From positions 1 through 24,655 of IMG/VR virus record IMGVR_UViG_3300005915_002008: a stretch of DNA of 24,655 nt; one strand, given 5' to 3'. Below the pieces are notes generated by a model, which saw only the letters and a program-made list of their open reading frames with translations, was not told the DNA's origin and made no database searches. Positions 7,402 through 23,113 of this stretch are shown piece after piece. Origin of the DNA: a virus. Made by a program: the position numbers and the translations under genes. Within the stretch, counting starts at the first letter, position 1. Each line of letters opens with the position of its first letter.

Positions 7402-7517
7402 TATAATTATTCATGGTTACTAAATTAATTTAGGTTTTTCATAGATATTACTAAAGTATTATTAATATAATAACAATAAAACCCCAACAATTTCTATTAT
7501 AATTTATAATTTATTAT

Positions 7518-7547
7518 AATAACCTTTATAAACATTTTGGTATATAA
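7518..7547 (+). promoter_or_regulatory. Recurrent TATA-box promoter (AATAACCTTTATAAACATTTTGGTATATAA)
   Basis: Consensus match upstream of the GGAGG SD and ATG 7589. Confidence 0.8.
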
Positions 7548-7588
7548 TTATATTAAATAATTCAATAATATTATCAGGAGGAATTAAT

Positions 7589-7866: not shown

Positions 7867-10740
7867 ATGGGCAATAATTTAAATACAAATCATATAGTTA
7901 GAAATGAAATGATGAATTTGTTTCCGCAGATTAAGAAGTATTGTGGGAACACGACTGGGTCATTTCTAAACACACCAATTTTTGTTATATTATATTTATT
8001 ATACAGTGATAATAGATTTAATAGTATAAAAAATCATGTGTATAAAGAAGATGGGATGATATATTTATATTATCATCAATATAATAGCATAGAAGATTTT
8101 AATAAAATGTCTAAAAAAGATAAAATTGAAGAGAATATAATATTTTATAAATTTCTAAATAATAATGGGAATAAGAACCAAACAAAGAGAGTAATGAATT
8201 TATTAAATCAGTACCAAGGAAATAAGGATTTAATGGATATTAAGCTTGACCATTCGAACTTTGCGTATTATATAAGATTCAATGAGAATATTAGTAATAT
8301 ATTCATAAACTATTTCGAAAGAATTATAAAGAATAATGGGAGATATAACAATCCGAATAATGAGATTAGAACTAGCATGGATGATGAAAATGATAATAAT
8401 GAAAATGAAAATAATGAAAATATAAATAAAGAGAATATAAATAGCATAATAAAGAATAATATTGTAACAGTGACTGATTATTTTATTGATAAAAAATTTA
8501 AGACATTACAAGAGGCTAAGGATATATATAAAAATAAATGTATATACATTCCGAATAGATTCAAGGAAGATCCACAATGCATACTTAATAATTATTATAA
8601 TTATTACATTCCTAAGATTGCGTTTTCGATGATGGACTTTCATAAATTAATAAATTCTAATGATGATTGTAGATTTATAATGAATCCCGAAATTAAGATA
8701 TCCACGTTCGATTATAATGCACTCGGGATGGTGCAGAATGTGCAATTTAGAATTGATGAGATAATAGAAATTAATGAATCATCTGGAGAAAAGTTCGTAG
8801 CAATGTATAAATATATCTGCCCGAGAAAAGAATGCCACGAGAGTGTGCAGATTCTACCAGAGGACATTCATCAAGAACTTCTACATGGATGTAAGAATTA
8901 TATAACAGAAGATAATAGACAAAAGTTTACGAAAATTAAACCTTCTGCATTGAAAAATGATAAAATGAAGTATATATATCTATATAAATGTAAGATTAAA
9001 ATTGCTGAGAATAAAGGGAAAAAGAATTGGAAGGAGATATATATATATAGCTTTAATAATGATATGAAAATTGGTAGATATTATGGGAATATAATTGTGT
9101 TTGATGATAAATTGAATAAAGATGAATCTAAAAATCGGACATTAGTGTTCTTACTCGGATATAACATGATTAAACCAGATGCGAATATAGAAATGATAAA
9201 TAATGAGACTGTACAGAGTGCTAGCAAAAGTTTCTGTGAGAAGATCGGAATGCCACATATTAGACTTATAGATACTGTGTTCGGTGTAAGGTATGTATAC
9301 AAAAAGTTCACGAACTTCGATTTCGAGGATAAAGGGATGTGGCTACAGATTATCACGACCATATCAGAACTCGCAAGGAATCTTTTCGAGCATGAGAAGT
9401 TCGGGATTAATGTGATTAGTAACATGTCACTCGGAAAAACTTTCATTGCGACTAAGTTCGCGCAAATGCTGGACTTGAAGTTCAAGCATTCACCAGATAT
9501 ATCATCGAACATGAGCGAAAAGGGATTCACGGGTGGAATTAATAATAATGGAATGAACATTAATGGTGTGAATATCAAGACTTTTCAGAAGGGTATTGTT
9601 TCATTTGGGGGTACAATTGTCATGGATGAAGCGACTAAATTCTTTACTGATAGTAACTATAACATGGCATTAAAAGGATTCTTTAATAAGAATATAGACA
9701 TTGCCAAGATTGGGGGGAAGACACTTGAGGTTGATTATACACCGATTATGCTTTCGAACTTCGATAGAATTGATAAAGAATATAGAAATGATATATATAA
9801 ATATTATAAAACTAAATGCTTCAAAAATAATGAAGAAGAGATTAATATTCATGAAAATTCGAACACTGAGATCCTGAGATATTTAAATAAAATAGATTTA
9901 TATTTACCAATATCATATTACCAAAATAGTCCGATTGAGAATAAAATACTCGCAGAGTCTGTGTATTATGTTCGGAATGTCTGGACAAAGAATAAGAAGC
10001 TAGACTATAAAAATGGGGGATTAATTGAGGCAATGAATAGAATATTCTTTAATGTCTCGGTTTGGAATACATTGAATGTAAAAAAGAAGAAGTTTAAATC
10101 TGCACATAATATGCTATGTGACATTGAGGATGAGATATTACCAATAAATGAATTTATTGATCAGATTCATGAATATTATAATCCTGAGAATAAGAATATA
10201 CAATTATTTTATGAATATAAAATGTCCGGGAGCAAGGAAGAAAAGCAGATAAAGAAGTTATATAGTAGTATAGAGAAATGGCTCGAGGGCAAGGACTGCG
10301 AGAACATGATTGAGTTTATTACAAACAGCACATATGAAATAGACCCAAAGACAGAGTCGTTATTGCATTCTATGATTGCAGTGATTCAGTTATGTGAGGA
10401 CATAAATTCAACAGAAATTTCTGAGAACGTGAAAAAGTGGGTTGTGTTATTAGTTCTGAAAAATAATAGAGGAATTTCAGAGAGAGAATATAATTTTGAA
10501 AAGAACTTAATGCATATTGATGTTGTGAATTATGATGTGATTGAGCTTGAGGAAGAATTAAAAGAAATTACTGAAGAGAATAAAATTAATGAAAAAGCTA
10601 GAATTGAATTACAAAAAGAGAAGATACAGAAAAAAGAAGAAAATATAAATAATCCGAATGAAAATGAATTGAATGAAAATAAAGACATGAGCATTGAAAT
10701 TAATAATATAAACGAAAAAGAATTTAATGAAATAGAATAA
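7867..10740 (+). CDS. mcm: Divergent MCM-family replicative helicase, 957 aa, with a long N-terminal extension and acidic C-terminal tail
   Basis: Zn-finger-like YICPRKECH...HGC; Walker A SNMSLGKT (about 9433); MCM-like SEKGFTGG and KGIVSFGGTIVMDE (Walker B, about 9622); pre-sensor-1 hairpin IDIAKIGG; sensor 1 LSN; Arg-finger-like MNRIFF. Confidence 0.85.
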   Translation: MGNNLNTNHIVRNEMMNLFPQIKKYCGNTTGSFLNTPIFVILYLLYSDNRFNSIKNHVYKEDGMIYLYYHQYNSIEDFNKMSKKDKIEENIIFYKFLNNNGNKNQTKRVMNLLNQYQGNKDLMDIKLDHSNFAYYIRFNENISNIFINYFERIIKNNGRYNNPNNEIRTSMDDENDNNENENNENINKENINSIIKNNIVTVTDYFIDKKFKTLQEAKDIYKNKCIYIPNRFKEDPQCILNNYYNYYIPKIAFSMMDFHKLINSNDDCRFIMNPEIKISTFDYNALGMVQNVQFRIDEIIEINESSGEKFVAMYKYICPRKECHESVQILPEDIHQELLHGCKNYITEDNRQKFTKIKPSALKNDKMKYIYLYKCKIKIAENKGKKNWKEIYIYSFNNDMKIGRYYGNIIVFDDKLNKDESKNRTLVFLLGYNMIKPDANIEMINNETVQSASKSFCEKIGMPHIRLIDTVFGVRYVYKKFTNFDFEDKGMWLQIITTISELARNLFEHEKFGINVISNMSLGKTFIATKFAQMLDLKFKHSPDISSNMSEKGFTGGINNNGMNINGVNIKTFQKGIVSFGGTIVMDEATKFFTDSNYNMALKGFFNKNIDIAKIGGKTLEVDYTPIMLSNFDRIDKEYRNDIYKYYKTKCFKNNEEEINIHENSNTEILRYLNKIDLYLPISYYQNSPIENKILAESVYYVRNVWTKNKKLDYKNGGLIEAMNRIFFNVSVWNTLNVKKKKFKSAHNMLCDIEDEILPINEFIDQIHEYYNPENKNIQLFYEYKMSGSKEEKQIKKLYSSIEKWLEGKDCENMIEFITNSTYEIDPKTESLLHSMIAVIQLCEDINSTEISENVKKWVVLLVLKNNRGISEREYNFEKNLMHIDVVNYDVIELEEELKEITEENKINEKARIELQKEKIQKKEENINNPNENELNENKDMSIEINNINEKEFNEIE

Positions 10741-10811
10741 ATAGAATATAAAAAATGGAGATGCAGAATTAAATAGTATGAATAGTGAGGAATTCGAAGA
10801 CATACAATAAT

Positions 10812-10846
10812 AAATTAAATACATTTAAAAAGGTTTTTATATATAA
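10812..10846 (+). promoter_or_regulatory. Degenerate copy of the recurrent promoter (AAATTAAATACATTTAAAAAGGTTTTTATATATAA)
   Basis: Same spacing between a TATA-like TTTAAAAA and TATATAA as in the consensus. Confidence 0.45.
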
Positions 10847-10896
10847 TATTATTATAATAGTAGTATTATATTAATATATAGTATGGAGAATATAAT

Positions 10897-11013
10897 ATGA
10901 ACTTAACACAAATACAAGTAACAGTAAAAACTAGAGAATTATTGAAATCAAAAAAGATTACAAATAGAGAATCTTATGATGAAATAATTAATAGATTAAT
11001 AAAAATTAATTGA
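10897..11013 (+). CDS. Archaeal-type small RHH/antitoxin-like protein, 38 aa (MNLTQIQVTVKTRELLKSKKITNRESYDEIINRLIKIN)
   Basis: Hand translation; TxIQV..KT...L..K...RESYDEII.RL pattern typical of small archaeal RHH proteins; GGAG SD. Confidence 0.7.
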   Translation: MNLTQIQVTVKTRELLKSKKITNRESYDEIINRLIKIN

Positions 11014-11019
11014 GAATAA

Positions 11020-11862
11020 ATGAGAAAAGGACAGAAAATTTCAGAAGAAACAAGAAAAAAAATGAGTGAATGGCATAAAGGAAAAATATGTTCTAAAGAA
11101 ACACGAAAAAAAATGAGTATAGTAAATAAAGGAAAAATATTATCAGAAGAAACAAAAAATAAAATAAGTATAGCAAAGAAAGGACATAAAGTTTCAGAAG
11201 AAACAAAAATAAAGATTGGATTAGCAAATAAGGGGCATATAGCTTGGAATAAAGGAAAAGAACGTTCAAAAGAAACAAGACAAAAAATAAGTAAATCAAA
11301 TAAAGGTAGAATTTCACCAATGAAAGGTAAAAACCATTTAGAAGAAACAAAAAGAAAAATGAGTTTAGTTCATAAAGGAAAAATAATGTCACAAGAAGCA
11401 AAAAAAAAAATGAGTATTGTAAAAAAAGGATGTATTCCTTGGATTAAAGGTAAAACACATTCAATAGAAACAAAAAAAAAATTAAGTGAATATCGTAAAG
11501 GTAAAACACATTCAATAGAAACAAAAAAAAAATTAAGAATTATACGTTTAGAACAAATTAAAAAATATTTTAATTCTCAACCATATATAAATGTAGGAAA
11601 GAATGAAAGTCAGATATTAGATAATATTGAAAATATTGATAATATTATTATTAATAGAGATTTTACATGTATAGGTTATCATCCTGACGGTTATTGTAAA
11701 GAAACAAATACAATATATGAAATTGATGAAAAATATCATTTTGATTATAATGGGAATATAAATAAGAAAGATATAATAAGACAGAATAATTTAATTGAGA
11801 AATTGAATTGTGAGTTTGTTAGGATAAAGGATTTTGAAGATTCTAAATATTTTAAGGTGTAA
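11020..11862 (+). CDS. Free-standing homing endonuclease-like protein: tandem NUMOD3 repeats plus C-terminal Vsr-like/PD-(D/E)XK nuclease, 280 aa
   Basis: About 8 repeats of (H)SxETKxKMSxxxKGK; C-terminal PDGY...IYEIDEKYH...D..RQ..L..KL.C.FVRI. Confidence 0.85.
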   Translation: MRKGQKISEETRKKMSEWHKGKICSKETRKKMSIVNKGKILSEETKNKISIAKKGHKVSEETKIKIGLANKGHIAWNKGKERSKETRQKISKSNKGRISPMKGKNHLEETKRKMSLVHKGKIMSQEAKKKMSIVKKGCIPWIKGKTHSIETKKKLSEYRKGKTHSIETKKKLRIIRLEQIKKYFNSQPYINVGKNESQILDNIENIDNIIINRDFTCIGYHPDGYCKETNTIYEIDEKYHFDYNGNINKKDIIRQNNLIEKLNCEFVRIKDFEDSKYFKV

Positions 11863-13149
11863 ATGAATATGAATGAAAATTATATATATTTTTTTAATAA
11901 TATTATAACATTCCAAAAATTCATAGAAATAAGGATTTTTGGTGTGAAATCTTACCCAATTATGAAATATGCACAAAATATGGAAGAATTACAAAAATAC
12001 ATTAAATTACACAATAGGTCTAACCTATATTGTAGTATTAACCCAAGAGTTACTAAAAGTGGTAAAAGCATTAATGTTAGTTATAGAAAAAACATATTCT
12101 TCGACATTGAGGGTATTAAAAACAAGCCCGTACTTACTGATTTAGGGTATTATAATAAGCTTAAAGATACAATAAACTATATTTCTAAATTATTCAATGA
12201 AAAATATGGTATGAATGTGAATTGCGTGGTTAAATCTGGACGTGGAATGCATGTATATTTCACAATACAGAATTTAGATAATAAATATCAAATTAAATAC
12301 ATAAAATGGTATAATGAAATTGTGAAATTTATAAACGAGAATTCACCCTATCATAATGAAATTAAATGTGACCCGCCAGTCAAGGATCTTCCGAGAATAG
12401 CAGGACTGCCAGGAACAATAAACTGGAAATATCCGGAAAAGCCTGTAAGGGAGATTGTGTATATTAATGAAAAGATTAATACAGGGTTTGAAAGTGTCTT
12501 AGATAATATAAAAGAGACTAAAACTAAGATGATCACAGAAAAAAGGACAATTAAAAAGTGCGGGAATAAAAAGAGATACACGAATGCAGACATTCTCGAT
12601 GCACCGGAGTTCCAGGTCTGGAAGTTCAAGCCAAAGCAAGGAACTTCATTAAATAATATTCTGCGGTTAGTTGGGAAACTTCTAATTGATCGAGATAGCA
12701 TAACCGATACATCTAAGATTTCTGAGTTCATACAGGATTGTGGTTATCCTTGGAAAGAAATGAATTTCGATCGGAGTCAATATCCTGATTATGAGTATAG
12801 TGAATCGATTCTTAATAAATATGTGATTCATAACATGCAATGGTCAGTCAATGTTGGATTTAAACTCCCATATAAACTATTTGAGGAAAAAGTTATAGAT
12901 AATTCAATCTCGCACATTGAAATTGATTATGATACAGAATTTATTGGTTATAATATAAATACTTTGAATGACTTAATTGGGTTCATAAAAGTATTTAATA
13001 AAAAATATTGTGATAATAGAGTTAATAATGGGATGAAATATTATACAAAGGCATTAGAGCAAAATATAGAAATTAATATAAAGAGTGAAATATTAAGAAA
13101 GTTTATAGAATTTAATAATTTAATTGAAAGATTAAAATACATTATATAA
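11863..13149 (+). CDS. Archaeo-eukaryotic primase superfamily (prim-pol/RepB'-like) protein, 428 aa
   Basis: Motif I FFDIE (DxE), motif II KSGRGMHVY, motif III D....D..RI..LPGTIN.K. Confidence 0.85.
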   Translation: MNMNENYIYFFNNIITFQKFIEIRIFGVKSYPIMKYAQNMEELQKYIKLHNRSNLYCSINPRVTKSGKSINVSYRKNIFFDIEGIKNKPVLTDLGYYNKLKDTINYISKLFNEKYGMNVNCVVKSGRGMHVYFTIQNLDNKYQIKYIKWYNEIVKFINENSPYHNEIKCDPPVKDLPRIAGLPGTINWKYPEKPVREIVYINEKINTGFESVLDNIKETKTKMITEKRTIKKCGNKKRYTNADILDAPEFQVWKFKPKQGTSLNNILRLVGKLLIDRDSITDTSKISEFIQDCGYPWKEMNFDRSQYPDYEYSESILNKYVIHNMQWSVNVGFKLPYKLFEEKVIDNSISHIEIDYDTEFIGYNINTLNDLIGFIKVFNKKYCDNRVNNGMKYYTKALEQNIEINIKSEILRKFIEFNNLIERLKYII

Positions 13150-13158
13150 ATTTACATT

Positions 13159-13191
13159 AATAAATATGTTTATAAATGTTTTGGTATATAA
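13159..13191 (+). promoter_or_regulatory. Recurrent TATA-box promoter (AATAAATATGTTTATAAATGTTTTGGTATATAA)
   Basis: Exact 33-bp match to the minus-strand copy at 5254..5286. Confidence 0.8.
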
Positions 13192-13226
13192 ATATGTATA
13201 TAAACAACTAAATTTATGGTGAAATT

Positions 13227-13445
13227 ATGAATAAAAATGAATTAGTATATAGTGATTATTTTAACACTATGTTTACTGTTAAAGTAAATGGAAAATTGAA
13301 GGATAAAATAAAAAAGCATATTAAGGATAGTAAAGGTCTTTGGCAAAACTTGTTTGATGACTTTTTAAGGGATTATGCTAAACAGAACAATATAGAATTC
13401 AACACCCTCAAGGTTAGAAAGATCGAATCAATCATAACTGACTAG
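13227..13445 (+). CDS. Small putative DNA-binding protein (RHH-like), 72 aa
   Basis: MFTVKVNGKLKDKIKKHI...WQNLFDDFLRDYA strand-helix-helix pattern; GGTGA SD. Confidence 0.5.
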   Translation: MNKNELVYSDYFNTMFTVKVNGKLKDKIKKHIKDSKGLWQNLFDDFLRDYAKQNNIEFNTLKVRKIESIITD

Positions 13446-13560
13446 AACTTCAATGTTTTAATTTTTTCTTAATTCGGTTTTTCTAATCTTATTTATAGTT
13501 AATAACTAATAGTTATCAAATAAAAAAAAGACTGCCAGGATTGGCAATGGAGGAATTAAC

Positions 13561-14310
13561 ATGACAACAAATAAAACAAATCTGAATGGGGATAAAGTCG
13601 AGATTCTTGAGGCGAATGAGAACATAGAAATTTTCAAGTCTGAAGAAGTCAAAGCTGAATCTAATTCTAATTCTAAAGAACAAGGTTCTGAAGCAGATGA
13701 AATAAGTAAAATAGACTCTGTGGATAAAATAACTTTTAATGATGAAACAGAACCTAAATCAGATCCTATGGAGCTTCAAGACTTTGCAGATTCTATTAAT
13801 TATGATATAGAATTTAATGAAGATGAAGAGCTTGAAGAAGACAAGGAAACTAAAGAGAAATATACAAAAAAGATATATACAATAGATAGAGTTGAAGTTG
13901 GTCAACCTAAGCAATTTGATAATGAAGGAAATAAAATTGCACCATTAATTAGTGATAATGGAGCTTTATTCTATGAATCGAAATTGATTGTGTTCTATAA
14001 GGATTCTACTTATAAATCTGTGATACCAAAAATTAAGTGGTATGTGAATAAAGATATTACAACTGGAAAAGAAACTCTAACACCTTGGTTTGCAATTAAA
14101 GAAGATTCAACAATTGAGGAACAATTTATTTCGGTACTTTCTAAAGTGTATTATAAATTTTGTAAATATATGAATTTAGAATCTGGTAAGGTTTCAATGA
14201 AAGACTTTATTACTAAGCTTCCTGGATTAAAGGTTAATCTTTATAATACAAAAGGTAAGTTTAAAGGAACTACATGGAATAGAATTGATATTGTGAAATT
14301 TGTAAAATAA
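13561..14310 (+). CDS. Putative single-stranded DNA-binding protein (OB-fold, DUF669-like end) with an acidic N-terminal region, 249 aa
   Basis: GGAGG SD; C-terminal L.G.KV.L....G.F.G...N.I...F pattern; located between primase and nuclease-helicase genes. Function is inferred. Confidence 0.4.
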   Translation: MTTNKTNLNGDKVEILEANENIEIFKSEEVKAESNSNSKEQGSEADEISKIDSVDKITFNDETEPKSDPMELQDFADSINYDIEFNEDEELEEDKETKEKYTKKIYTIDRVEVGQPKQFDNEGNKIAPLISDNGALFYESKLIVFYKDSTYKSVIPKIKWYVNKDITTGKETLTPWFAIKEDSTIEEQFISVLSKVYYKFCKYMNLESGKVSMKDFITKLPGLKVNLYNTKGKFKGTTWNRIDIVKFVK

Positions 14311-14322
14311 GTTTTACAATTA

Positions 14323-14337
14323 TTTTTTTTCTTTTTT
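14323..14337 (+). terminator. Candidate archaeal oligo(T) terminator (T8-C-T6)
   Basis: T tract 12 nt after the stop of 13561..14310; T tracts are common in this AT-rich DNA. Confidence 0.35.
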
Positions 14338-14366
14338 ATTTATTTATTTATTAGGTATGAAAATAT

Positions 14367-16586
14367 ATGAGTTTGAAGTTTAATTTATCCGCGAGTAGCG
14401 TGTCGAAATATAAGGAATCACAATTAGACTTTTATTATACATATATAGAAAAGTCTAAACCTGATACTCAAATTCTATCAGTTTATGGTAATGCTGGGAA
14501 TATTGTTCATTCTTCCTTAGAGAATTATATTACTTTATTAAAGAATAAGGATGTAACTAAGGGCTATGCAAAGACAGAAGTCGAGAAGTATTTTAGTACT
14601 CAATGGTTTGAAAAGAATATATCACAAATGCAGACGAAAAATAATAAACCCCTTGATATAAATAAATATTTTAATGGATTAAGGAATGCGTTTGTATATA
14701 TAAATAAAAATATTAATATAAGTAATAACTTAATTCCGGAACAGAAGTTCATTTTCCCAATAGTTAATACTAAAGATGCAGTTATAAATTTCAAGGGATT
14801 CATAGATCTTGTGGATGAAACTACTGATATAATTTACGACTGGAAGACAAACTCATCTATTCAGAACTTCAACCTACATGCTAGAATTTATTGCTATGCA
14901 TATTGGAAAATGTATAATAGAATTCCAAAGGCTATATATTATTATTGTAATGTAGATAAGCCAAAAATATATTATTTCACAAAAGATGAAGTTCTAGAAA
15001 CTGAAACTGAATTGAATGATCTATGCAAAGAAATCATAGGTAAAGGACATGACATTTCTAAGTACGATCTAGGTAACTATAATCATATATTCAATGTACA
15101 TTTACAGAAGTGCAAAAGAGAGGCATTGAATAGACAGGACTCTGATGTGATACAATACAATATTGAAAAGAATAATATAATATTCAGAAATTTAAACAAC
15201 AATTTAAAGAATATAATTGATAAAAAATTTAGTTATTATATAAACGGTCATGAGTTTAGTGACTTATTTAAAAAGAGAATATGGGATGGCAAAACTCATT
15301 TATTTAGTATAAAAAGTAACAAATTACCTATTGGTTTATTTACGATTTTCAAAAAATTACTTAATCAATATAATAAATATTCAGAAAGGGACTATAAATT
15401 AGAACTAAAGTATGATTTAAGAAATAAAGATATAATGTCTAATCAATTCGAGACTAAGTTTAAGGACAATAAAGATATAGAATTAAGATATTACCAAAAT
15501 GATGCAATAAAAAGTGCGATAGAAAACAAGATAGGAATTATATATGGCGGAACTGGTTGTGGTAAGTCTATCATTTCAGCAGAGATTATTAAGAATATAA
15601 ATAAAAGAAGTTTATATATTATAAATAGAATAGAACTTGTTGATCAAACTGCAGAGGTCTTTGAGGAATATTTAGGAATAGAAATTGGGAAAATGTCTGA
15701 GGGGAATCTGGATATAAATAAACAGGTCACAATCGCATCAATTCAAACGGTTAATAGCCTCTTAAAACAGAGCTCTGAGAATTCGAAATTACTAAAAAAG
15801 TATTTATACAATACAAACATCTGTATTTTTGATGAATGCCAGAACGTGAAAGACGATGGGTGCTATAAATTGTTATCGAATAACTTAACTAATTGTGAGT
15901 ATTTAATAGGCATGACAGGAAGTCCATTTAGGAACGATGAGCACACACTTAAAATGAAGGCATTAGTCGGTGATGTTATTTATAGTAAAACTACAAAAGA
16001 TCTAGTATCCGAGAATTACTTAGTTCCGACTAAGGTTTATTTTTTAGAGTACGATACAATTTTTGATAGAAATTATCAAAGCTACTCTGACGCATACACA
16101 GATCTCATTGTAGGAAACATTGAGAGAAATAATTTAATTAAAGACATTGTAAGTAAGTTCGAGAATAAAAAGATCTTAATTATCACAAAATTAATAAAGC
16201 ATGGAAAGTTACTCGAAGAACTTATCCCAGATAGCTTTTTAATCACAAGCCAAACAAAAAAGGATATACGAAAGCAAAAGTTTAAGGACTTCAAGGACAA
16301 TAAATTTAATATTCTTATCGGATCGGCTCAGATATTCTCGACCGGAATTGATATTCCCGATCTTGATATAATTCTAAACAGTAGTGGTCATCGTTCAGAT
16401 GTTTTATCAACTCAAATTATAGGACGAGTTATGCGTAAGTCTAAAAATAAAGAATTTGGATACTACATAGACTTTATAGACGACACGAGTGTATATTTCA
16501 GGCAAGCAACTAAGCAACGAATTCAGATTCTAACAGAATTCGGGCACGAAATTTTAAAAATTAATGATATAAAGGACATACAATAA
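14367..16586 (+). CDS. Fusion protein: N-terminal PD-(D/E)XK (RecB/Cas4-like) nuclease plus C-terminal UvsW-like SF2 helicase, 739 aa
   Basis: LSASSV..Y, GNIVHSSLE, FKGFIDLVD, IYDWKT and IY..AY motifs; UvsW-type WDGK..LF (15282); LRYYQ, GTGCGKS, DECQ, TGSP, TGIDIPDL, QIIGRVMR. Confidence 0.88.
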   Translation: MSLKFNLSASSVSKYKESQLDFYYTYIEKSKPDTQILSVYGNAGNIVHSSLENYITLLKNKDVTKGYAKTEVEKYFSTQWFEKNISQMQTKNNKPLDINKYFNGLRNAFVYINKNINISNNLIPEQKFIFPIVNTKDAVINFKGFIDLVDETTDIIYDWKTNSSIQNFNLHARIYCYAYWKMYNRIPKAIYYYCNVDKPKIYYFTKDEVLETETELNDLCKEIIGKGHDISKYDLGNYNHIFNVHLQKCKREALNRQDSDVIQYNIEKNNIIFRNLNNNLKNIIDKKFSYYINGHEFSDLFKKRIWDGKTHLFSIKSNKLPIGLFTIFKKLLNQYNKYSERDYKLELKYDLRNKDIMSNQFETKFKDNKDIELRYYQNDAIKSAIENKIGIIYGGTGCGKSIISAEIIKNINKRSLYIINRIELVDQTAEVFEEYLGIEIGKMSEGNLDINKQVTIASIQTVNSLLKQSSENSKLLKKYLYNTNICIFDECQNVKDDGCYKLLSNNLTNCEYLIGMTGSPFRNDEHTLKMKALVGDVIYSKTTKDLVSENYLVPTKVYFLEYDTIFDRNYQSYSDAYTDLIVGNIERNNLIKDIVSKFENKKILIITKLIKHGKLLEELIPDSFLITSQTKKDIRKQKFKDFKDNKFNILIGSAQIFSTGIDIPDLDIILNSSGHRSDVLSTQIIGRVMRKSKNKEFGYYIDFIDDTSVYFRQATKQRIQILTEFGHEILKINDIKDIQ

Positions 16587-16614
16587 ATACGTTTATAAAT
16601 ATTTTGGTATATAA
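16582..16614 (+). promoter_or_regulatory. Recurrent TATA-box promoter (AATAAATACGTTTATAAATATTTTGGTATATAA)
   Basis: Consensus match overlapping the helicase stop codon, 21 nt before ATG 16636. Confidence 0.8.
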
Positions 16615-16635
16615 ATATATAAAATGTGAATACAT

Positions 16636-18252
16636 ATGAATTTAAATTTGAATAACATTGCATGGTCAGAAAAATACAGACCGAAGAATGTCGATGCTGT
16701 GGTTTCGGATAGTAAGCAGAAGATAAAGAAATACCTAGAGAACCCTGAGAGCATCGAGATAAATAAAATATATTGTATGGATTGTATTGATGGCATGAAG
16801 CAGCTAGAAGCTAATAGTGTAGACTCAATAGTAACTGATCCACCCTATGAATTAGGTTTCATGGGTAAGTCTTGGGATGGAACAGGAATTGCATTTAAAC
16901 CAGAAGTTTGGAAACAAGCTCTACGAGTATTAAAACCAGGAGGACATCTTTTAGGTTTTGGTGGAACTAGGACTTATCACCGTATGGCCTGTGCAATTGA
17001 GGATGCTGGGTTTGAGATAAGAGACCAGATACAATGGATTTATTCTACTGGATTCCCTAAGTCACTGAATATTGGAAAAGCTATTGATAAAGTTAGTAAA
17101 AGATTAAATTTATTCACACCATTTGCTAGGTACTTAAAAGAGCAAAGACTAAAAAAAGGTTTTGTGATAACTGATGTTTCAAAGCATTTTATGAGCAAAA
17201 CTGGGGGTGTGACTGGTTGTGTTAGTAATTGGGAATTAGGATATAGTACTCCAACTAAGACACAATTTATAATTCTAAAGCAATTATTAGACCTAGAAGA
17301 TACTTTTGATGACTTGATAAATAGGGTTGAAGCAGAAAGAAAAGTAATTGGAGAACAACATAGATCTGCTGGGAATGATGTAAATATACCATTTTCTGCT
17401 TGTCATACAAATAAAAATAATGGTTGGTTTAATATTACAGCCCCATCCACAGACCAGGCTAAGAAGTATGATGGTTGGGGTACAAATTTAAAACCTGCCA
17501 ATGAACCAATTTGTGTAGCGAGGAAGCCTTTAGAGGAAAAGACTGTTGCTGCTAATGTTCTAAAATATGGTACTGGTGGTATTAACATCGATGACTGCAG
17601 GATTGGAACTGATGAAAATATAGAATTAGGCAGAAATAATAGAAAGGAATGTATTTCTAATTCATTTGGTCGAAAATTACTGGGTATAGATAGGAGTGGA
17701 TTAAATCAAGGTCGTTTTCCTTCTAATGTGATTCTTGATGGTTCAGAAGAAGTTACTAATTTATTTCCTAATAGTAAATCAACTGGTAGTGATGGATCTA
17801 AATTTAATAATTCTTGTTTTAAAGGATTAGAAAAAGATGTTATTAAAAAAGATGGACTTGGTTTTGGTGATGATGGTTCAGCTTCTCGTTTCTTTTACTG
17901 TGCAAAGGCAAGTAAGTCTGAGAGGAATAAAGGGCTTGAGGGATTTGATGATGTAAAAGGTGGTTCAATGGAAGGTGGAAATGATAAAAGAAATGGGTTA
18001 AATAAACCACAATTGAAATTAACAAAAAATATTCATCCTACTATAAAACCAGTTAAGTTAATAGAATATTTAATCAGGCTTGTGACTCCAAAGGGTGGGG
18101 TTGTTTTAGACCCTTTCATGGGTAGTGGCACGACTGGAATGGCTGCTAAGGCTCAGGGGTTCAATTACATTGGGTTTGACATGACTAAAGAATACTGTGA
18201 AATAGCAGAAGCCAGAATTAAGAGTGTAGATCACCAAATGAAATTATTTTAA
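16636..18252 (+). CDS. Beta-class amino (m6A/m4C) DNA methyltransferase, 538 aa, with an N-terminal clamp-loader-like stub and an internal XRE-type HTH
   Basis: NKIYCMDC, TDPPY (16834..16848), HPTIKP..L, VLDPFMGSGTT; first 40 aa WSEKYRPKNVDAVV; HTH YLKEQRLKKG...VSNWELGYSTP. Confidence 0.9.
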   Translation: MNLNLNNIAWSEKYRPKNVDAVVSDSKQKIKKYLENPESIEINKIYCMDCIDGMKQLEANSVDSIVTDPPYELGFMGKSWDGTGIAFKPEVWKQALRVLKPGGHLLGFGGTRTYHRMACAIEDAGFEIRDQIQWIYSTGFPKSLNIGKAIDKVSKRLNLFTPFARYLKEQRLKKGFVITDVSKHFMSKTGGVTGCVSNWELGYSTPTKTQFIILKQLLDLEDTFDDLINRVEAERKVIGEQHRSAGNDVNIPFSACHTNKNNGWFNITAPSTDQAKKYDGWGTNLKPANEPICVARKPLEEKTVAANVLKYGTGGINIDDCRIGTDENIELGRNNRKECISNSFGRKLLGIDRSGLNQGRFPSNVILDGSEEVTNLFPNSKSTGSDGSKFNNSCFKGLEKDVIKKDGLGFGDDGSASRFFYCAKASKSERNKGLEGFDDVKGGSMEGGNDKRNGLNKPQLKLTKNIHPTIKPVKLIEYLIRLVTPKGGVVLDPFMGSGTTGMAAKAQGFNYIGFDMTKEYCEIAEARIKSVDHQMKLF

Positions 18253-18270
18253 TAAAATAGGGTATAAATT

Positions 18271-20013
18271 ATGAATTACATTAATGATTATTTAGGCTTA
18301 AATGAATTAAAGGTGTTTGCATTTGACACAGAGACGTACGGTCTAGAATTTGATACAATAAACCTAAAAGACATAAGCTTTAGTGATGGTACTAATTCAT
18401 ATTACTTCGATAAGGATCATTTAGATATCGAAAAATTAAAGAATGTACTAATTAACGCGGATTTAATAATCGGGCATAATCTAATATTCGACTTGACTGT
18501 GATGTCTAAGTTCTTTGGTCGAAGCTTTTTATTCGAGATAAATAATGTACCACTATTTGATACCATGCTAGCACAATATATACTAAACGAAAATGCTAAG
18601 AAGGGATTAAAGCATCTAAGTGAGACTATTTTGGGATATAAAATGCAGACTTACGAGGAATCTGTTAATAGCCTGAATAAAGAAACTTGGATTAAGTATA
18701 GTCTAGAGGATTCAATTCAGACATTTAAACTGTATAAATATTTTAAAAATAAAGTTAATAATAATAAAGTATTCAAGAGAGAATGTAAGGCTATACTCCC
18801 AATCGTGGACATGCAACTCGAGGGCTTTCTCGTGGACAAGACTAAATTTAAGGACATAAAAGAAAAAATGGAGAATAGACTCAAGGAAATTGAGGATGAG
18901 TTTATATCGGTTTTTAAGAAATATGGATTAAAACAAAATAGCCTGTTCGGTAGCATTATCCCGATAAACCTAAATTCACCAAAGCAGTTAAAGAAGTTTA
19001 TTAATAACAAATTAAAAATAAAAATTGAGGATACAAGTGTTAAGACACTAAAGAATTATAAAACGAAGCATAAGTTTTTTGAATTGTTATTGGATTATAG
19101 GCATATTTATAAGTTATACAATAGCTATATTAAGCCTTTTGAAGAAAAACACATACAATCAGATGGTAAAATACACGCGAGTTTTAATCCAACTGGAACA
19201 GTAACCGGCAGATATTCAAGTTCTTCTCCAAATCTTCAACAAATCCCATCCTTTGACGAGTTTGGTATGAGGGAACTATTTATAGCAGATAAGGGTTATA
19301 AAATAGCTTGTTTGGACTATGCCGGACAAGAGATTAGGCTCGCAGCCATTATTTCTAATGATAGGAATATGAAAGATGCACTTTTGAATAATAAAGATAT
19401 ACATCTAATGACTGCTAATAGTGTTTATAACTTAGGCATACCCTCTGAATGTCTAAAGACTAATCATAAAGATTACAAAATGTATAAAGATAAGTTCAAT
19501 GCATACAGAAAAAAGGCGAAGATGGTGAACTTCGGTGTTCTCTATGGCGCAGGTGCGATGGGTGTTTCTAACCTCACAGGTGAGTCCGAGGATAAGGCAC
19601 AGGAAATGATTGATAATTTTTTTGAATTTTATACAGGAATAAAATTAAAAATTAATAAAAATTCTAATTATTTATATAAATATAATGAGGTTATAAATTT
19701 ATTTGGTAGACAAAGGAGATTTGAATTGATTGACAGTAAAGCAAAAAGACAATCATTCAATTTCTTAATTCAAGGTACAGCTGGGGATATGTTAAAGATA
19801 GACTTATATAGAGTTTGGAATGAAGTTGTATTAAAATATAAAGATAATATTAAATTAAAAGCTACAGTACATGATGAAATAATATTTATGATTAAAGAAA
19901 ATATGATAGACGAAATATTACCACAATTAGTTAATATCATGCAAGACTTTAAATTTGAAATCCCAATAATAGTAGATTATAATATAGGAAATAATTATGG
20001 TTCAGCTCATTAA
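18271..20013 (+). CDS. polA: Family A DNA polymerase with a 3'-5' exonuclease domain and no 5'-3' exonuclease, 580 aa
   Basis: Exo I FDTET, Exo II GHNLIFD, Exo III YSLED; TGRYSSSSPNLQQIP; motif A DYAGQEIR; motif B RKKAKMVNFGVLYG (Phe at the E. coli 762-equivalent position); motif C VHDE. Confidence 0.95.
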   Translation: MNYINDYLGLNELKVFAFDTETYGLEFDTINLKDISFSDGTNSYYFDKDHLDIEKLKNVLINADLIIGHNLIFDLTVMSKFFGRSFLFEINNVPLFDTMLAQYILNENAKKGLKHLSETILGYKMQTYEESVNSLNKETWIKYSLEDSIQTFKLYKYFKNKVNNNKVFKRECKAILPIVDMQLEGFLVDKTKFKDIKEKMENRLKEIEDEFISVFKKYGLKQNSLFGSIIPINLNSPKQLKKFINNKLKIKIEDTSVKTLKNYKTKHKFFELLLDYRHIYKLYNSYIKPFEEKHIQSDGKIHASFNPTGTVTGRYSSSSPNLQQIPSFDEFGMRELFIADKGYKIACLDYAGQEIRLAAIISNDRNMKDALLNNKDIHLMTANSVYNLGIPSECLKTNHKDYKMYKDKFNAYRKKAKMVNFGVLYGAGAMGVSNLTGESEDKAQEMIDNFFEFYTGIKLKINKNSNYLYKYNEVINLFGRQRRFELIDSKAKRQSFNFLIQGTAGDMLKIDLYRVWNEVVLKYKDNIKLKATVHDEIIFMIKENMIDEILPQLVNIMQDFKFEIPIIVDYNIGNNYGSAH

Positions 20014-20044
20014 AATATACAATAAATATATATATAAATATACA

Positions 20045-20076
20045 AATAAATACCTTTATAAATATATTGGTATATA
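20045..20076 (+). promoter_or_regulatory. Recurrent TATA-box promoter (AATAAATACCTTTATAAATATATTGGTATATA)
   Basis: Consensus match heading the post-polA operon. Confidence 0.75.
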
Positions 20077-20126
20077 TATTATATATATAATAGCCTGAAT
20101 AGGCAAAGGAGAAAATGTGAAAAAAT

Positions 20127-20480
20127 ATGGAAAAAAGTGTAAATACACAAAGTGTAAATACAAAAAATATAAATATACAGAATGTAAATATAAAAGAAAA
20201 ATTAAAAATGTATTTTGATTTGTCTAATGACATAGAAACTTTAGACGAGCAAAGGAAAATTATTAAAGAAGACTTAGAAATTGTACTAACACAAAGTGGG
20301 GTTGATTCATTATCTACTTCTTTAGGATCAATTAGTTATGTTCATAGAAATTATACATCAATTGATAAAATATTTATTGAATCAATTCTTACAATTGAAC
20401 AAAAAGAAAAAGCATACACACAAAAAGAGTCTAAATTTATAAAAATTACTAAATCTAAAAAAGAGAGTGACCAGAAATGA
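20127..20480 (+). CDS. Hypothetical coiled-coil protein, 117 aa, with a 5-aa N-terminal repeat (SVNTQ SVNTK NINIQ NVNIK)
   Basis: ORF track; AAGGAG SD; 15-bp periodicity at the 5' end. Confidence 0.75.
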   Translation: MEKSVNTQSVNTKNINIQNVNIKEKLKMYFDLSNDIETLDEQRKIIKEDLEIVLTQSGVDSLSTSLGSISYVHRNYTSIDKIFIESILTIEQKEKAYTQKESKFIKITKSKKESDQK

Positions 20481-20749
20481 AGCTCGAGATTTCTATTTGC
20501 TTGAAAAAAGACGAGTGTGACTTCTTCTATTTCGAGGATCAATTCGATACTGAGGTTGCTACAATTAAGGGATACAAGGACACCGATGACGCGGGGTTAT
20601 ATTTCTATACATTATTTGAGGTTGTAGACTCAATCTTTAACGAGAAAAGCACACTAAAATTAATAAATGATAAGTGCAGTTTCGAGATGGAACTCTCAGA
20701 GGCTGATGAAAAGATATACAAAGAATGCTTTGGAGATGATCTAGAATGA
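20477..20749 (+). CDS. Acidic hypothetical protein, 90 aa
   Basis: ORF track; ATGA overlaps with both neighbours. Confidence 0.75.
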   Translation: MKLEISICLKKDECDFFYFEDQFDTEVATIKGYKDTDDAGLYFYTLFEVVDSIFNEKSTLKLINDKCSFEMELSEADEKIYKECFGDDLE

Positions 20750-20934
20750 ATAAAGAATTAAAAAAACAATTTCAGGCAATATTTAATATTATAAACTCAA
20801 AGATTAAAATACAATCACAAATTGAGTTATGCAAGGATTCCTGGAAGGACTTTGAGAACACGAATTATTTTATAAACACAAGGGACATAAATTTAGTTGA
20901 TTTATACAATGAAGAATTCAAGAAAGTGAAATAG
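20746..20934 (+). CDS. Small hypothetical protein, 62 aa
   Basis: ORF track; ATGA overlap; GGAG SD. Confidence 0.7.
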   Translation: MNKELKKQFQAIFNIINSKIKIQSQIELCKDSWKDFENTNYFINTRDINLVDLYNEEFKKVK

Positions 20935-20936
20935 AT

Positions 20937-21380
20937 ATGAAAAAGCAAATTAAAAATATATGTAATAATTTAATTAGTATACATGAAAATCATTTTAGAA
21001 AAAATGATAACTTAGAATTTATAGGATATAAATATGTCGATGGATTAACAAAAAAGAAGTTCCTAAAAAATTTCACAATAAAGACATTTATTGAAAGATT
21101 CTATACACTATATTGGTTTAAATTAAATTATCACTATTTAATATTAAACAGAAATGATTTTCATATTACTCGAATTAAAGCATTGAAAAGTGTATTTAAG
21201 GAATGTACAACAAATATTGATTATAAAAAGATATCTACAGAAGTTATTTATTATGAAGACAATGACTTTCAAGTATCAGTATTTCATTCAATGATAATTG
21301 ATAATAAAACATATAGAATAGAATTATTATATCAACATAATGAATTGCTTTTTAGGGTTTGTTGTATGGATATAATTTAA
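20937..21380 (+). CDS. Hypothetical protein, 147 aa, very AT-rich, flanked by a 20-bp direct repeat
   Basis: ORF track; AGAAAGTGAAATAGRTATGA at 20921 and 21401. Confidence 0.7.
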   Translation: MKKQIKNICNNLISIHENHFRKNDNLEFIGYKYVDGLTKKKFLKNFTIKTFIERFYTLYWFKLNYHYLILNRNDFHITRIKALKSVFKECTTNIDYKKISTEVIYYEDNDFQVSVFHSMIIDNKTYRIELLYQHNELLFRVCCMDII

Positions 21381-21416
21381 TATATAAAAATAAAAGTATT
21401 AGAAAGTGAAATAGGT

Positions 21417-22664
21417 ATGATTGATATAAATAGTATGATACAACAGGTATTACAAAGCGAGATTCTAAGTGGTGCATTATTTATTAGCGTTTTCATGGGA
21501 TTAATATATTCATTAAAAGGATTACCCCTTAAATTCTGGAATTGGATAAAGAAATATATATATTATGAAGTTTATATATATGAAACTGATAATTTGTTTG
21601 TATATTTTGAGAAATTCTTAAATAAGAATTACAATAAAAAATATAGAAAAGTTGAGGCAGTTACAGAATTTAATAAATTAGACACAGATATAGGTTATGA
21701 TAAAGCACCCGAATCAGACTCGAATATAAATAAAAAACAAAAAAAGAAAAATGTGTTTATGAAGCAATATCAAATGATATTCACAATTAAGTATAATAAA
21801 AAATATTATATTATAAATAAAGGTCGTGAGAAATTCGAGAATACAAACAATTTAAAAAATGCGTACATGAATCATTATAACATAAAAACTTTATTTTATA
21901 ATAAAAGGTATATAAATAAGTTATTGAATGAGTTAGTCGAAAAGAATATTAAAAAAAAAGTGACAAACACAATTTATGCAAACAATTCTGATTATTGGAT
22001 TAGAGCTTGTGAGAAGAATCTTAGGAGTCTAAAAACAGTTGTGTTAAACAATAAAATAAAGAATGAAGTTATTAATGCATTAAAGAAATTTAACTCGAAT
22101 AAGTCATGGTACAAAAAGCGTGGGATTCCTTATAAACTAGGAATACTATTGCATGGTCCACCAGGGAATGGAAAGACGTCATTGATTCAAGCAATAGCGA
22201 ATGAATTTAAAAAAGACATTTATTATCTAAATCTAGGAAACACAAAGGACGATTATTTAGCTAGATTGTTTAGGTGCATTAATGAAAATAGTATAATTAT
22301 AATTGAGGACATTGATGCATTATTCAAGTCAAAAAGAGAAATGAATAATAAGGATTTAACATTCAGTGGGTTTATTAATGTCCTAGATGGTCTGATGTCC
22401 TCAGAGAATGTAGTATCGATCTTCACAACAAATAAAAAATTGAGCTTAGACGAGGCTCTAATGCGACCAGGCAGGATCGATTTTAAGATTGAGATCCCGA
22501 ATCCGACAATTAATGAAATTAAAGAATATTATAAATTATTTTTTAATACAAATATTAAAATTAAAAAATTAATTAAGAATATTAGCATGGCAGAAGTACA
22601 GGATATATTCCTAAAAAATTTAGAAAATAAAGATAGAATAAATAAGTTATTAGAAGGAAAATGA
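21417..22664 (+). CDS. BCS1-like membrane-anchored AAA+ ATPase, 415 aa
   Basis: N-terminal TM helix; L.TVVL....K; WYKKRGIPYKLGILLHGPPGNGKTS; Walker B IIIEDID; TFSGFINVLDG; TTN; DEALMRPGRID. Confidence 0.85.
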   Translation: MIDINSMIQQVLQSEILSGALFISVFMGLIYSLKGLPLKFWNWIKKYIYYEVYIYETDNLFVYFEKFLNKNYNKKYRKVEAVTEFNKLDTDIGYDKAPESDSNINKKQKKKNVFMKQYQMIFTIKYNKKYYIINKGREKFENTNNLKNAYMNHYNIKTLFYNKRYINKLLNELVEKNIKKKVTNTIYANNSDYWIRACEKNLRSLKTVVLNNKIKNEVINALKKFNSNKSWYKKRGIPYKLGILLHGPPGNGKTSLIQAIANEFKKDIYYLNLGNTKDDYLARLFRCINENSIIIIEDIDALFKSKREMNNKDLTFSGFINVLDGLMSSENVVSIFTTNKKLSLDEALMRPGRIDFKIEIPNPTINEIKEYYKLFFNTNIKIKKLIKNISMAEVQDIFLKNLENKDRINKLLEGK

Positions 22665-23113
22665 TAGATATGACAAAGCAACATTTAGAGAGTTACTTAA
22701 GCAGGAGTCTGAAGCAGTACAATGATTTATGGTACTTGAAGCTTCAGGTAATGCCTTTGGCACACACACAGACACCCGCGGATTACATTGTGCTCTCAAA
22801 GGATAATAAATATTTAGTTGAATGTAAGGAATGCAAGAACGATATTTTCAGTTTCGATCGACTCACTCAGGAGCATGAGTTAAGTGTGTTCCAGAGTAAG
22901 TTCAAGAGCAATCGGAGTTATTTACTATTAATGTTCTGGAAAGAAAGATTGAATAAGTCATCTATATACCTAATTCCAATCAATGCATATTTAAGACATA
23001 AGTCCCGGACGAAAAAGAGATCTATAAATCTTAAAGAATGCCAAGATCAATTTATGATTTATAAAGTAATGCTAACCGAGAACAATTTATTAAATTTAAA
23101 TGACCTGAGATGA
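22661..23113 (+). CDS. Holliday junction resolvase-like PD-(D/E)XK nuclease (RecU/Hjc-like), 150 aa
   Basis: LE..L, TPADY, LVECKE, SFDRL.Q motifs; the start may be ATG 22670. Confidence 0.7.
   Translation: MIDMTKQHLESYLSRSLKQYNDLWYLKLQVMPLAHTQTPADYIVLSKDNKYLVECKECKNDIFSFDRLTQEHELSVFQSKFKSNRSYLLLMFWKERLNKSSIYLIPINAYLRHKSRTKKRSINLKECQDQFMIYKVMLTENNLLNLNDLR

Follow-up and report, generated by a model that had tools for sequence, protein, structure and literature searches.

A family A DNA polymerase beside a predicted MCM-fold helicase and an AEP primase in a replication module of an uncultured tailed virus

How a DNA polymerase of family A (PolA) comes to stand in one module with replication genes of archaeal type is the question raised by an uncultured virus known from IMG/VR record IMGVR_UViG_3300005915_002008 (G000). 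The common view is that a replicative polymerase goes with a particular helicase, primase and clamp. The stretch analyzed, called the window from here on, is the entire record of 24,655 nt, with a GC content of about 27%; its genes diverge from a switch region near positions 7000 to 7800, and the rightward set includes a predicted MCM-fold helicase, an AEP primase, a nuclease joined to a UvsW-like helicase, PolA and a Holliday junction resolvase. A first-pass annotation, made from the sequence alone, had described this set as the replisome of an archaeal virus lineage in which PolA displaced a polymerase of family B (PolB). The parts that it named firmly are all found where it had placed them, co-oriented on the + strand, and the module also holds a NUMOD3 endonuclease, the body of a methyltransferase, four small open reading frames (ORFs) and a BCS1-like AAA ATPase, which were outside its list. 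Our best explanation, to which as a whole we would give a probability of roughly 0.65, is that this stretch serves an uncultured tailed virus of the class Caudoviricetes as its module for DNA replication and recombination, and that the virus kept an archaeal-type core while the PolB and clamp set of one slot was replaced by a methyltransferase and PolA, with the methyltransferase placed on the signals of the old clamp loader.

Read together with its relatives, the window would show one MCM/AEP core in three set-ups: with PolB, PCNA and RFC in the genome G001; with PolA, PCNA and RFC in contigs of the L042 type; and with PolA and a truncated loader in the window. These make up a natural series for asking how freely PolA can join a replisome of archaeal type, whether PCNA takes part in its work, and what becomes of clamp genes after their client is lost.

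The polymerase slot in the window and in related viruses

The polymerase gene (18271..20013, + strand) encodes a 580-aa enzyme with a 3′-5′ exonuclease and without a 5′ nuclease domain. Both the polymerase and the exonuclease domains score above their Pfam cutoffs (DNA_pol_A, 5.6e-76, 256 bits against a cutoff of 34; exonuclease, 1.3e-19, 71 bits against 24), and the motifs FDTET, DYASQELR, RKKAKMVNFGVLYG and VHDE are present, with polymerase motifs A, B, and C intact, which bears out the earlier call of PolA. Its relatives lie at 53-63% identity on metagenomic viral contigs, then at no more than 36%, and then at about 30% among bacterial Pol I enzymes; a scan of IMG/VR with the PolA clade returned no close relative (best, 32% identity).

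Two other viruses encode an MCM of the window's family: G001 (82,856 nt, with direct terminal repeats and rated complete), which is tailed (portal, large terminase [TerL], HK97 major capsid protein/protease, tape measure, and baseplate hub), and G002 (59.7 kb). The MCM, AEP, nuclease-helicase and resolvase genes of G001 stand in the same order as in the window, at 31-39% identity (31% for the AEP). Between the helicase and the resolvase, G001 has, in this order, PCNA (1e-22 in a profile comparison with archaeal PCNAs), an RFC-like loader (AAA, DNA_pol3_delta2, and Rep_fac_C), a YhhQ-type transporter, two TGT/DpdA-like genes, a GNAT gene, and a divergent PolB with motifs A, B, and C and the PIP-like C-terminus KTGLDKWF. 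G002 has a clearer PolB (5e-19) right after its helicase, and neither G001 nor G002 has a PolA. The window has, from nuclease-helicase to resolvase, a DNA methyltransferase and the proofreading PolA, without PCNA or RFC, so that its PolA and the PolB of G001 both lie between orthologous nuclease-helicase and resolvase genes. Because the relatives hold PolB between the same flanking genes and the window keeps a loader box (described below), the proposal that PolA took the place of a PolB-type replicase module, in the window lineage or its donor, can be called partly supported. What stands of the annotation's claim that PolA displaced PolB is that PolB, not PolA, occupies the slot in the relatives; the direction is one that the arrangement suggests rather than records.

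The contig L042, from the same sample as G001, separates the steps of such an exchange. Its PCNA, loader, 162-aa gene, DpdA-like gene and GNAT gene are orthologous to those of G001 (28-52% identity; loader, 47%; DpdA-like, 52%; GNAT, 52%), and the gene that follows GNAT is a PolA, 63% identical to that of the window, where G001 has PolB. By BLAST, on which alone this comparison is based, the PolB of G001 and the PolA of L042 thus come after the same orthologous GNAT, DpdA, RFC, and PCNA genes, the pattern of an in situ swap of DNA polymerases (DNAPs). L042 also encodes a PriL-type subunit. Two further contigs, L040 and L038, carry a PolA-clade gene near an RFC-like loader or PCNA, together with ERCC4 and an archaeal-type AdoMet synthetase (PF01941), and there is no PolB within the 16-18 kb around PolA in L042, L038 or L040. 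Since L042 has the G001-type PCNA/RFC block and then PolA, the polymerase swap and the loss of the clamp loader would be separate events: judged from gene order and similarity, the swap took place in situ with the clamp system intact, and the clamp was lost separately in the window lineage, with the methyltransferase, whose insertion there coincides with the loss of the loader. The first-pass annotation had taken the decay of the loader to be consistent with displacement by PolA, but that decay would not follow simply from the arrival of PolA, as the closest PolAs adjoin an intact PCNA and/or intact RFC-like loaders (L042, L040, and L038). G001, L042, and the window can be read as a series, which need not be a direct line of descent.

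The loader box lies at the start of the gene between helicase and polymerase. Its first ~41 codons (16636..16758, + strand) encode an RFC-type N-terminal box (W..KYRPK..D.VV) and continue in frame into the body of an N6/N4 (beta-class, DPPY) DNA methyltransferase (16759..18252, + strand; N6_N4_Mtase, 1e-38; phrog_67, 1.5e-78), with the DPPY motif at residue 68. The box matches the N-terminus of the G001 loader (49% over 37 aa, E 6e-7), that of the L042 loader (55% over 40 aa, E 6e-9), and that of the RFC large subunit (E 2.7e-3); it is collinear with the relatives' loaders, and the similarity ends about 10 aa before their Walker A. The AAA+ module (Walker A/B, SRC) and the collar domain are absent from the ORF, in which only the N-terminal box (aa 1-41) is of loader type. 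The clamp-loader stub of the earlier annotation is therefore right as to the loader N-terminal box upstream of polA, but it is an in-frame leader of the methyltransferase ORF rather than a separate decayed gene. This arrangement is most simply read as the work of a methyltransferase gene that moved in and took over the expression signals and opening codons of a clamp-loader gene, the rest of which was deleted. The methyltransferase itself matches the 221-position N6_N4_Mtase profile over aa 62-525, and about 240 aa are inserted where the two profile halves would otherwise meet (product aa ~155-294).

The expression signals in question include a promoter-like element of 22 nt, TTTATAAA-N6-GGTATATA, usually preceded by AATAAATA. 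Four copies stand on the + strand of the module, before four operons, and one lies on the − strand. The first + strand copy (7525..7546), preceded by an AATAA-type sequence, is upstream of a 71-aa ORF and MCM; the second is at 13169..13190; the third (16592..16613) is directly upstream of the fused ORF, 22 nt from its start codon; and the fourth is at 20055..20076. GGTATATA occurs 8 times where 2.0 occurrences are expected, a count that 0 of 100 shuffles reach, and the element was found only in contigs of the window virus. With one enriched element in four copies along the module, the notion of a single promoter type, also put forward in the first-pass annotation, holds.

The relatives share a further habit at the polymerase. 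In G001 (L013:15484-18941) and L042 (L042:5435-9978), genes for 7-deazaguanine DNA modification lie directly upstream of it: the YhhQ transporter and the two TGT/DpdA-like genes in G001, and QueD/E/C, FolE, QueF, and a DpdA-like gene in L042. The corresponding position directly upstream of polA is held by a C5 methyltransferase in L038 and L040, and in the window the modification gene is the N6/N4 methyltransferase. Modification gene and polymerase seem to be exchanged as neighbors, and a slot that always pairs a DNA-modification gene with a polymerase hints at a joint exchange of polymerase and modification chemistry.

The conserved core of the module

The helicase gene (7867..10740, + strand) encodes 957 aa that no sequence model recognizes: there was no family at E ≤ 0.01 in Pfam (including the MCM model PF00493), PHROGs or NCBIfam, no match among PDB sequences by phmmer, and likewise no sequence-family match for 10 members of its family. 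A PDB profile search with the family returned only a ClpX Walker A (7e-4) and the Zn region of Mcm7 (0.055). By exhaustive profile search, the protein belongs to a coherent family of 51 representative clusters, mostly of 800-1070 aa. In 38 members, C318, C323, H340, C342, K524-T525, D587-E588, N631, R703, and R725 are invariant or nearly so, providing in turn a zinc site, Walker A, Walker B, sensor 1, and arginine residues; the catalytic residues of an AAA+ ATPase (K524, D587/E588, N631, and R725, plus R703) are thus all in place.

An AlphaFold2 model built on the family alignment (pLDDT 76.5, pTM 0.70, the core mostly 85-97) consists of a poorly modeled extension (residues 1-200), an MCM N-domain with a Zn site (~203-436), an AAA+ domain (~465-735), and a helical, winged helix-like C-domain (~760-880). 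All of the best Foldseek matches are MCM chains, either eukaryotic Mcm2-7 or archaeal (E ~1e-13, 650-840 columns). In a VIA search of 48,161 representative chains, ten MCMs came out on top (Z 14.8-17.2, 400-484 residues aligned), covering model residues 187-870; the isolated MCM N-domains 4pof (Z 7.7) and 1ltl (Z 7.6) matched residues 203-436, and RavA, ComM and BchI had lower scores, over the ATPase part only. The model also has short paired strands, one pair lying between Walker A and B (563-575) and one ahead of the sensor-1 strand (609-621), the positions expected for the helix-2 insert and pre-sensor-1 hairpins. As modeled, then, the protein has the two-tier architecture of an MCM, an N-domain and then AAA+, despite failing every sequence model, and it is by fold that its earlier identification as MCM is sustained.

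Archaeal and eukaryotic MCMs (SsoPfMCM, 9nuk; M. acidophilum MCM, 8q67; Mcm2-7) share the predicted fold over ~400-480 aligned residues, including the N-domain, along with the Walker A Lys, the Walker B DE, the sensor-1 Asn, the Arg, and the Cys/His zinc site. The window protein differs from them in its sequence identity of 8-12%, in having no Pfam MCM match, in its Walker A (S-L-G-K-T against GDPG..KS) and Arg motif (NR.LF against SRFD), and in two extras, an N-terminal extension of ~200 aa and a coiled, low-complexity C-terminal tail. The extension (aa 1-200, window 7867-8470) includes an Asn/Glu-rich linker and is modeled with low confidence; it is common to the closest members, L124 and L125, and missing from many others. 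On the strength of the models, this would be a large MCM family, previously unrecognized, which forms about 40 clusters at 50% identity and which current sequence models fail to detect. By tblastn, the window MCM has no match in 50,697 deposited phage and archaeal-virus genomes; no proviral relative of the family, which would have been a clue to the host, was found in genome contigs; and a metagenome scan for further loci returned contigs of at most 11 kb, none extending to a polymerase. The PolA:PolB tally across loci of the MCM family is 1:2. The joint occurrence of MCM and PolA in IMG/VR, which the first-pass annotation had proposed as a check, was not seen: in a sample of PolA-bearing records of at least 30 kb, 0 of 46 had an MCM of either kind, with a positive control run alongside.

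The AEP-superfamily primase (11863..13149, + strand), identified by motifs and fold, has a catalytic part at ~1-215 and a C-terminal helical domain. Motifs invariant in 6 homologues are FFDIE (D81, E83), SGRGxH (S125-H130), and a motif III region (K168...R178...P183). It has no Pfam match of its own, and its family profile found nothing in the PDB, but a 44%-identical homologue, P0056, carries PF01896 (PriS) in precomputed annotation. The top Foldseek matches of its AlphaFold2 model (pLDDT 82) are all AEP domains: S-2L PrimPol (TM 0.61), CAPP, LigD-pol, RepB′, PriS, and D5/E5. Invariant motifs I-III and a predicted AEP catalytic fold both back the annotation on this gene.

Two proteins without a recognized family follow. 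A conserved ORF of 72 aa (13227..13445, + strand) has no family match and a homologue at the same position in L128 (37% identity). The next gene (13561..14310, + strand) encodes 249 aa, with an acidic N-terminal region and a conserved C-terminal domain of ~150 aa, in a position like that of a single-stranded DNA-binding protein; syntenic homologues in L128 and L129 are 31-35% identical, and there is no similarity to the syntenic 210-aa protein of G001. Neither the sequence of this putative single-stranded DNA-binding protein nor a profile built from 3 sequences matched anything in Pfam, PHROG, NCBIfam, or PDB, and a DUF669-like model in Atlas (TM 0.44) may serve as a lead only.

The nuclease-helicase (14367..16586, + strand) combines a PD-(D/E)XK nuclease (aa 7-224) with a UvsW-like superfamily 2 helicase (aa ~287-718), as had been annotated (PDDEXK_1, 1e-12; ResIII, 4e-19; Helicase_C, 6e-12; phrog_16, 2e-84). 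Its best solved relative is T4 UvsW, 2oca (E 1.9e-28, query 287-718 on UvsW 28-469); the Pfam UvsW_N model scores 23.2 bits, under its cutoff of 25.3. The homology to UvsW spans the N-domain and both RecA-like lobes, and the N-terminal PD-(D/E)XK fusion is an addition. Orthologues are present in G001 (31%), G002, and L128 (43%), and no deposited phage genome covers at least 80% of the protein. Downstream, the 150-aa resolvase (22661..23113, + strand) is probably of RecU/Hjc type, as the annotation had named it, by phrog_843 (1e-12) and by D41...E54-x-K56, conserved in the G001 orthologue (39% identity); Pfam RecU falls below cutoff (2e-4, 21.8 bits against 25), and no PDB sequence matched.

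The conserved archaeal-type core would on our explanation comprise the divergent but complete MCM, the AEP, the small conserved ORF, the 249-aa protein, and the nuclease-UvsW, with the resolvase downstream. In such a replisome, MCM would unwind, AEP would prime, and PolA would synthesize without a virus-encoded ring clamp; the UvsW-nuclease and the resolvase would process the intermediates of recombination-dependent replication before packaging; and the methyltransferase, expressed from the promoter, start codon, and first ~41 codons of the old clamp loader, would mark progeny DNA.

Host, replicase, and the direction of exchange

Tailed viruses infect bacteria or archaea. The window virus is tailed (a TerL with an intein, Phage_capsid_4, and a cement protein), and we lean toward an archaeal host for it, with reservations. 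One pointer comes from G001, which has a block of 20 tRNA genes (L014:6496-9841, at 46.5-49.8 kb of G001). By established identity rules, the tRNA-Tyr of bacteria belongs to class II and carries G1:C72, and their initiator tRNAs are mismatched at 1:72. The tRNA-Tyr of G001 is 71 nt long, with a 5-nt variable loop, and is class I with C1:G72; its tRNA-Met has A1:U72. Because they break the bacterial identity rules for tRNA-Tyr and initiator, these tRNAs are of archaeal/eukaryal type, in agreement with the archaeal-type PCNA, RFC, PriL, and MCM, and an archaeal host is indicated for G001 as far as gene sequences can tell. The archaeal virus lineage of the first-pass annotation thereby gains a relative with an archaeal-type tRNA-Tyr, but for the window virus itself it is only plausible. 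The same tRNA block holds a tRNA-Ile(UAU) and an unusual 78-nt tRNA-Met, with no tRNA-Leu or tRNA-Arg called in it.

A low-GC bacterium is a serious competitor as host, though in our judgment the less probable one. The window virus would then be a bacteriophage with MCM-like and AEP parts of the kind seen in N4-like and other phages, and PolA would be simply the usual phage polymerase. The window PolA, methyltransferase, and UvsW-like helicase do point toward bacteria or phages: among cellular proteins, bacterial Pol I enzymes come nearest to PolA, the best matches of the helicase are in Herelleviridae and T4-type phages, and the methyltransferase is CcrM-like. Phages are reported to have superfamily 6 (SF6) MCM-like helicases together with AEP, and the same source calls PolA “largely limited to bacteriophage genomes” (PMC4889955); the MCM of the window, however, has the full N-domain plus AAA+ architecture in its model, unlike the DUF3987 type. 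Shine-Dalgarno sequences are present and GGTATATA can be read as a bacterial extended −10 (TGnTATATA), but the TTTATAAA box after an A-rich stretch fits an archaeal TATA/BRE equally well. L042 encodes a GGDEF-domain protein (L042:12800-13456) amid archaeal-looking replication genes (PCNA, RFC, PriL, and ERCC4), which is either evidence for a bacterial host or an odd acquisition. Against the bacterial host stand the archaeal/eukaryal features of the G001 tRNA-Tyr and tRNA-Met, the PCNAs of the relatives, which score best against archaeal PCNAs, and the PriL, ERCC4, and archaeal-type AdoMet synthetase PF01941 encoded by PolA-clade relatives.

Whether PolA is the replicase is a separate matter. 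It might be an accessory enzyme of repair or gap filling, with replication left to a PolB in the unsampled genome or to a host polymerase with host PCNA. We consider this unlikely, even though there is no recognizable processivity partner for PolA in the window, its clade relatives coexist with PCNA/RFC of unassigned client, and phages carrying additional divergent PolAs beside the main DNAP have been described (Yutin et al.). PolA occupies the exact slot of the only polymerase of the relatives, and the surroundings of PolA in L042, L038, and L040 are free of PolB, as noted above. The window virus was extended outward via metagenomic contigs to ~54 kb, in which, apart from the stub, phmmer --max (E ≤ 10) found no PolB-, PCNA- or loader-like ORF, so that the PolB elsewhere in the genome, which the annotation had named as a refutation, was looked for and not found in this extent. 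The ends of the extension do not overlap, which leaves the genome open, and late-gene blocks border the part not seen. As the contig ends do not meet and the completeness estimate is low (CheckV, 11% for the window record), a second polymerase elsewhere in the genome can be called only unlikely.

The exchange could also have run the other way, PolA (with or without PCNA/RFC) being ancestral and PolB having taken over in G001 and G002. The PolBs of these two genomes have no detectable mutual similarity by BLAST, which fits independent acquisitions, and the PolAs form a coherent clade (53-63% identity) that extends over viruses of several types. This we regard as improbable, since a clamp and its loader are the natural partners of PolB; moreover, a PIP-like motif stands at the C-terminus of the G001 PolB, whereas a search for PIP boxes in the PolAs turned up none at the terminus and just QEMIDNFF, which lies inside the chain and is probably buried. 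The loader relic of the window also implies that a loader preceded the present state, and MCM, AEP, PCNA, and RFC are of the types that accompany PolB in magroviruses (PMC10768690).

Several points nevertheless weigh against our best explanation. With an open genome and a CheckV completeness of 11%, the unseen DNA could hold a second polymerase or a clamp. The dissimilar PolBs of G001 and G002 suggest that the slot turns over repeatedly, which leaves any single ancestral state in doubt, and PolB-first would be a direction read from gene arrangement. The L042 contig has no MCM and may come from another virus lineage. Finally, the relatives of PolA keep PCNA and RFC, which weakens the case for a clamp-independent PolA; it may work with a clamp or beside one.

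An assembly chimera of archaeal-virus and phage fragments, for which only the mixed gene affinities speak and which the first-pass annotation had listed as a possible refutation, is refuted as far as assemblies can show and is extremely improbable: a 49.5-kb ENA contig (L001) contains the window sequence at 99.9-100% identity, the 240-nt helicase/stub/methyltransferase junction is exact in two assemblies from different other samples, the order methyltransferase-PolA-AAA-resolvase recurs in at least 5 contigs (ENA, JGI, and Logan; several samples), and the same promoter element lies on both sides of the junction. Samples with this virus include ENA ERZ27315536 and ERZ27315667 and JGI 3300022868.

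Known systems and neighboring genes

Swapping as such is already known. In-situ exchanges of A- and B-family DNAPs at the same position have been described in Caudoviricetes (Yutin et al. 2021, PMC7886860; Yutin et al. 2024, PMC11348598); they are common in tailed phages, and adjacent replication genes are sometimes exchanged too (PMC11348598). G001, L042, and the window resemble these cases in having a different DNAP family among preserved neighbors. The published cases are bacteriophages with DnaB and DnaG, whereas the partners here are MCM, AEP, PCNA, and RFC, and, unlike in those cases, a fossil of a lost accessory gene, the loader N-terminus, survives fused to the newcomer. What this locus adds is partners of archaeal type, a series of three stages, and a relic fused to another gene. 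PMC11348598 states that archaeal viruses encode PolB and leaves MCM and clamps unmentioned; the main text of Liu et al. 2021 (PMC8651126) makes no statement on polymerase families.

By gene inventory there is a likeness to Magrovirales (Aoguangviridae), tailed viruses of marine Poseidoniales archaea with low GC, divergently transcribed replication and morphogenesis clusters, and a near-complete replisome of archaeal type with MCM, AEP primase, PCNA, RFC-S, and PolB (PMC10768690). G001 has the same set. The window virus differs from magroviruses in having PolA, without PCNA or RFC, and an MCM that fails the Pfam MCM model; the tblastn search that found no match for this MCM covered a genome set in which the presence of magroviruses is unconfirmed.

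A second likeness is to coliphage N4. An SF6 (DUF3987, MCM-like) helicase with AEP is found in phages including N4 (Kazlauskas et al. 2016, PMC4889955), and N4 is in PolA group 1 (Kazlauskas and Venclovas 2011, PMC3201878); a tailed phage with PolA, an AEP domain, and an AAA+ SF6 helicase distantly related to MCM thus exists, and a combination of MCM-like SF6 helicase, AEP, and PolA in one phage is, broadly taken, not unprecedented (PMC4889955). DUF3987 proteins, however, have only a distant link to MCM and are often fused to a primase, whereas the MCM of the window is a separate 957-aa gene with the full predicted architecture (Zn-OB N-domain, AAA+, and C-domain), and the relatives of the window have PCNA/RFC/PolB, unlike the N4-type setting. 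PolA has been found largely or only in bacteriophages (PMC4889955; PMC3201878), and with a clamp only where the clamp is a homologue of bacterial beta/gamma, in two large phages (PMC3201878).

Against this background, the wider proposal is that an archaeal tailed-virus lineage replicates with PolA and that L042, L040, and L038 pair PolA with PCNA and an RFC-like loader, which we put forward tentatively. If the host is archaeal, PolA-based replication would extend to the archaeal virosphere, PolA among double-stranded DNA viruses having been reported until now essentially only from bacteriophages and virophages. The contigs would then represent either a PolA-PCNA holoenzyme of an undescribed kind or a staged takeover, from PolB/PCNA/RFC through PolA/PCNA/RFC to PolA alone, with the three stages preserved in related genomes and the loader fossil in the last.

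The remaining genes of the module flank these parts. The first gene of the rightward set is the 71-aa ORF (7589..7804, + strand), which has no family match, is called as a gene in other assemblies, and has a Shine-Dalgarno sequence (GGAGG) upstream of its start. Between MCM and the primase lies a mobile insert, the NUMOD3 homing endonuclease (11020..11862, + strand; NUMOD3, 1e-35; phrog_314), which is absent at the corresponding position of G001. It is 280 aa long in the window and 263 aa in the otherwise identical 49.5-kb contig (L001:13112-13903), a difference of one repeat unit. A related endonuclease ORF stands in L128 between two pieces of the nuclease-helicase gene, as if splitting it. 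After PolA come four small ORFs (117, 90, 62, and 147 aa; 20127..21380, + strand) without family matches, the 117-aa ORF having an L042 homologue (32% identity), and then the 415-aa BCS1-like AAA ATPase (21417..22664, + strand; AAA, 9e-23; BCS1_N, 1e-13; phrog_7485, 8.5e-84), which lies between polymerase and resolvase and overlaps the start of the latter by 4 nt. It has no counterpart in the slot of G001, and as a candidate clamp loader it was rejected, being BCS1-like.

Beyond the window, about 1.3 kb to the right of its end, the virus encodes a thioredoxin (L023:13306-13578). Thioredoxin is the processivity factor of the family A polymerase of T7; the 580-aa PolA looks too compact for a T7-like thioredoxin-binding loop. 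To the left, just outside position 1, is a 934-aa gene with an intein (L020:10539-13343, + strand of that contig, − strand of the window virus). It was considered as a hidden PolB and rejected, as its extein reads as a large terminase, with an ATPase Walker B interrupted by the intein and a C-terminal nuclease-type motif. The intein of this TerL gene, of LAGLIDADG type, directly follows the ATPase Walker B (...NDE|C). A tRNA-Thr(UGU) (window 95-166, − strand), the sole tRNA in the ~54 kb, lies between the terminase gene and a block of small ORFs, and the late-gene block of the window virus holds at least 4 further homing endonuclease genes of NUMOD3/HNH/DUF559 type.

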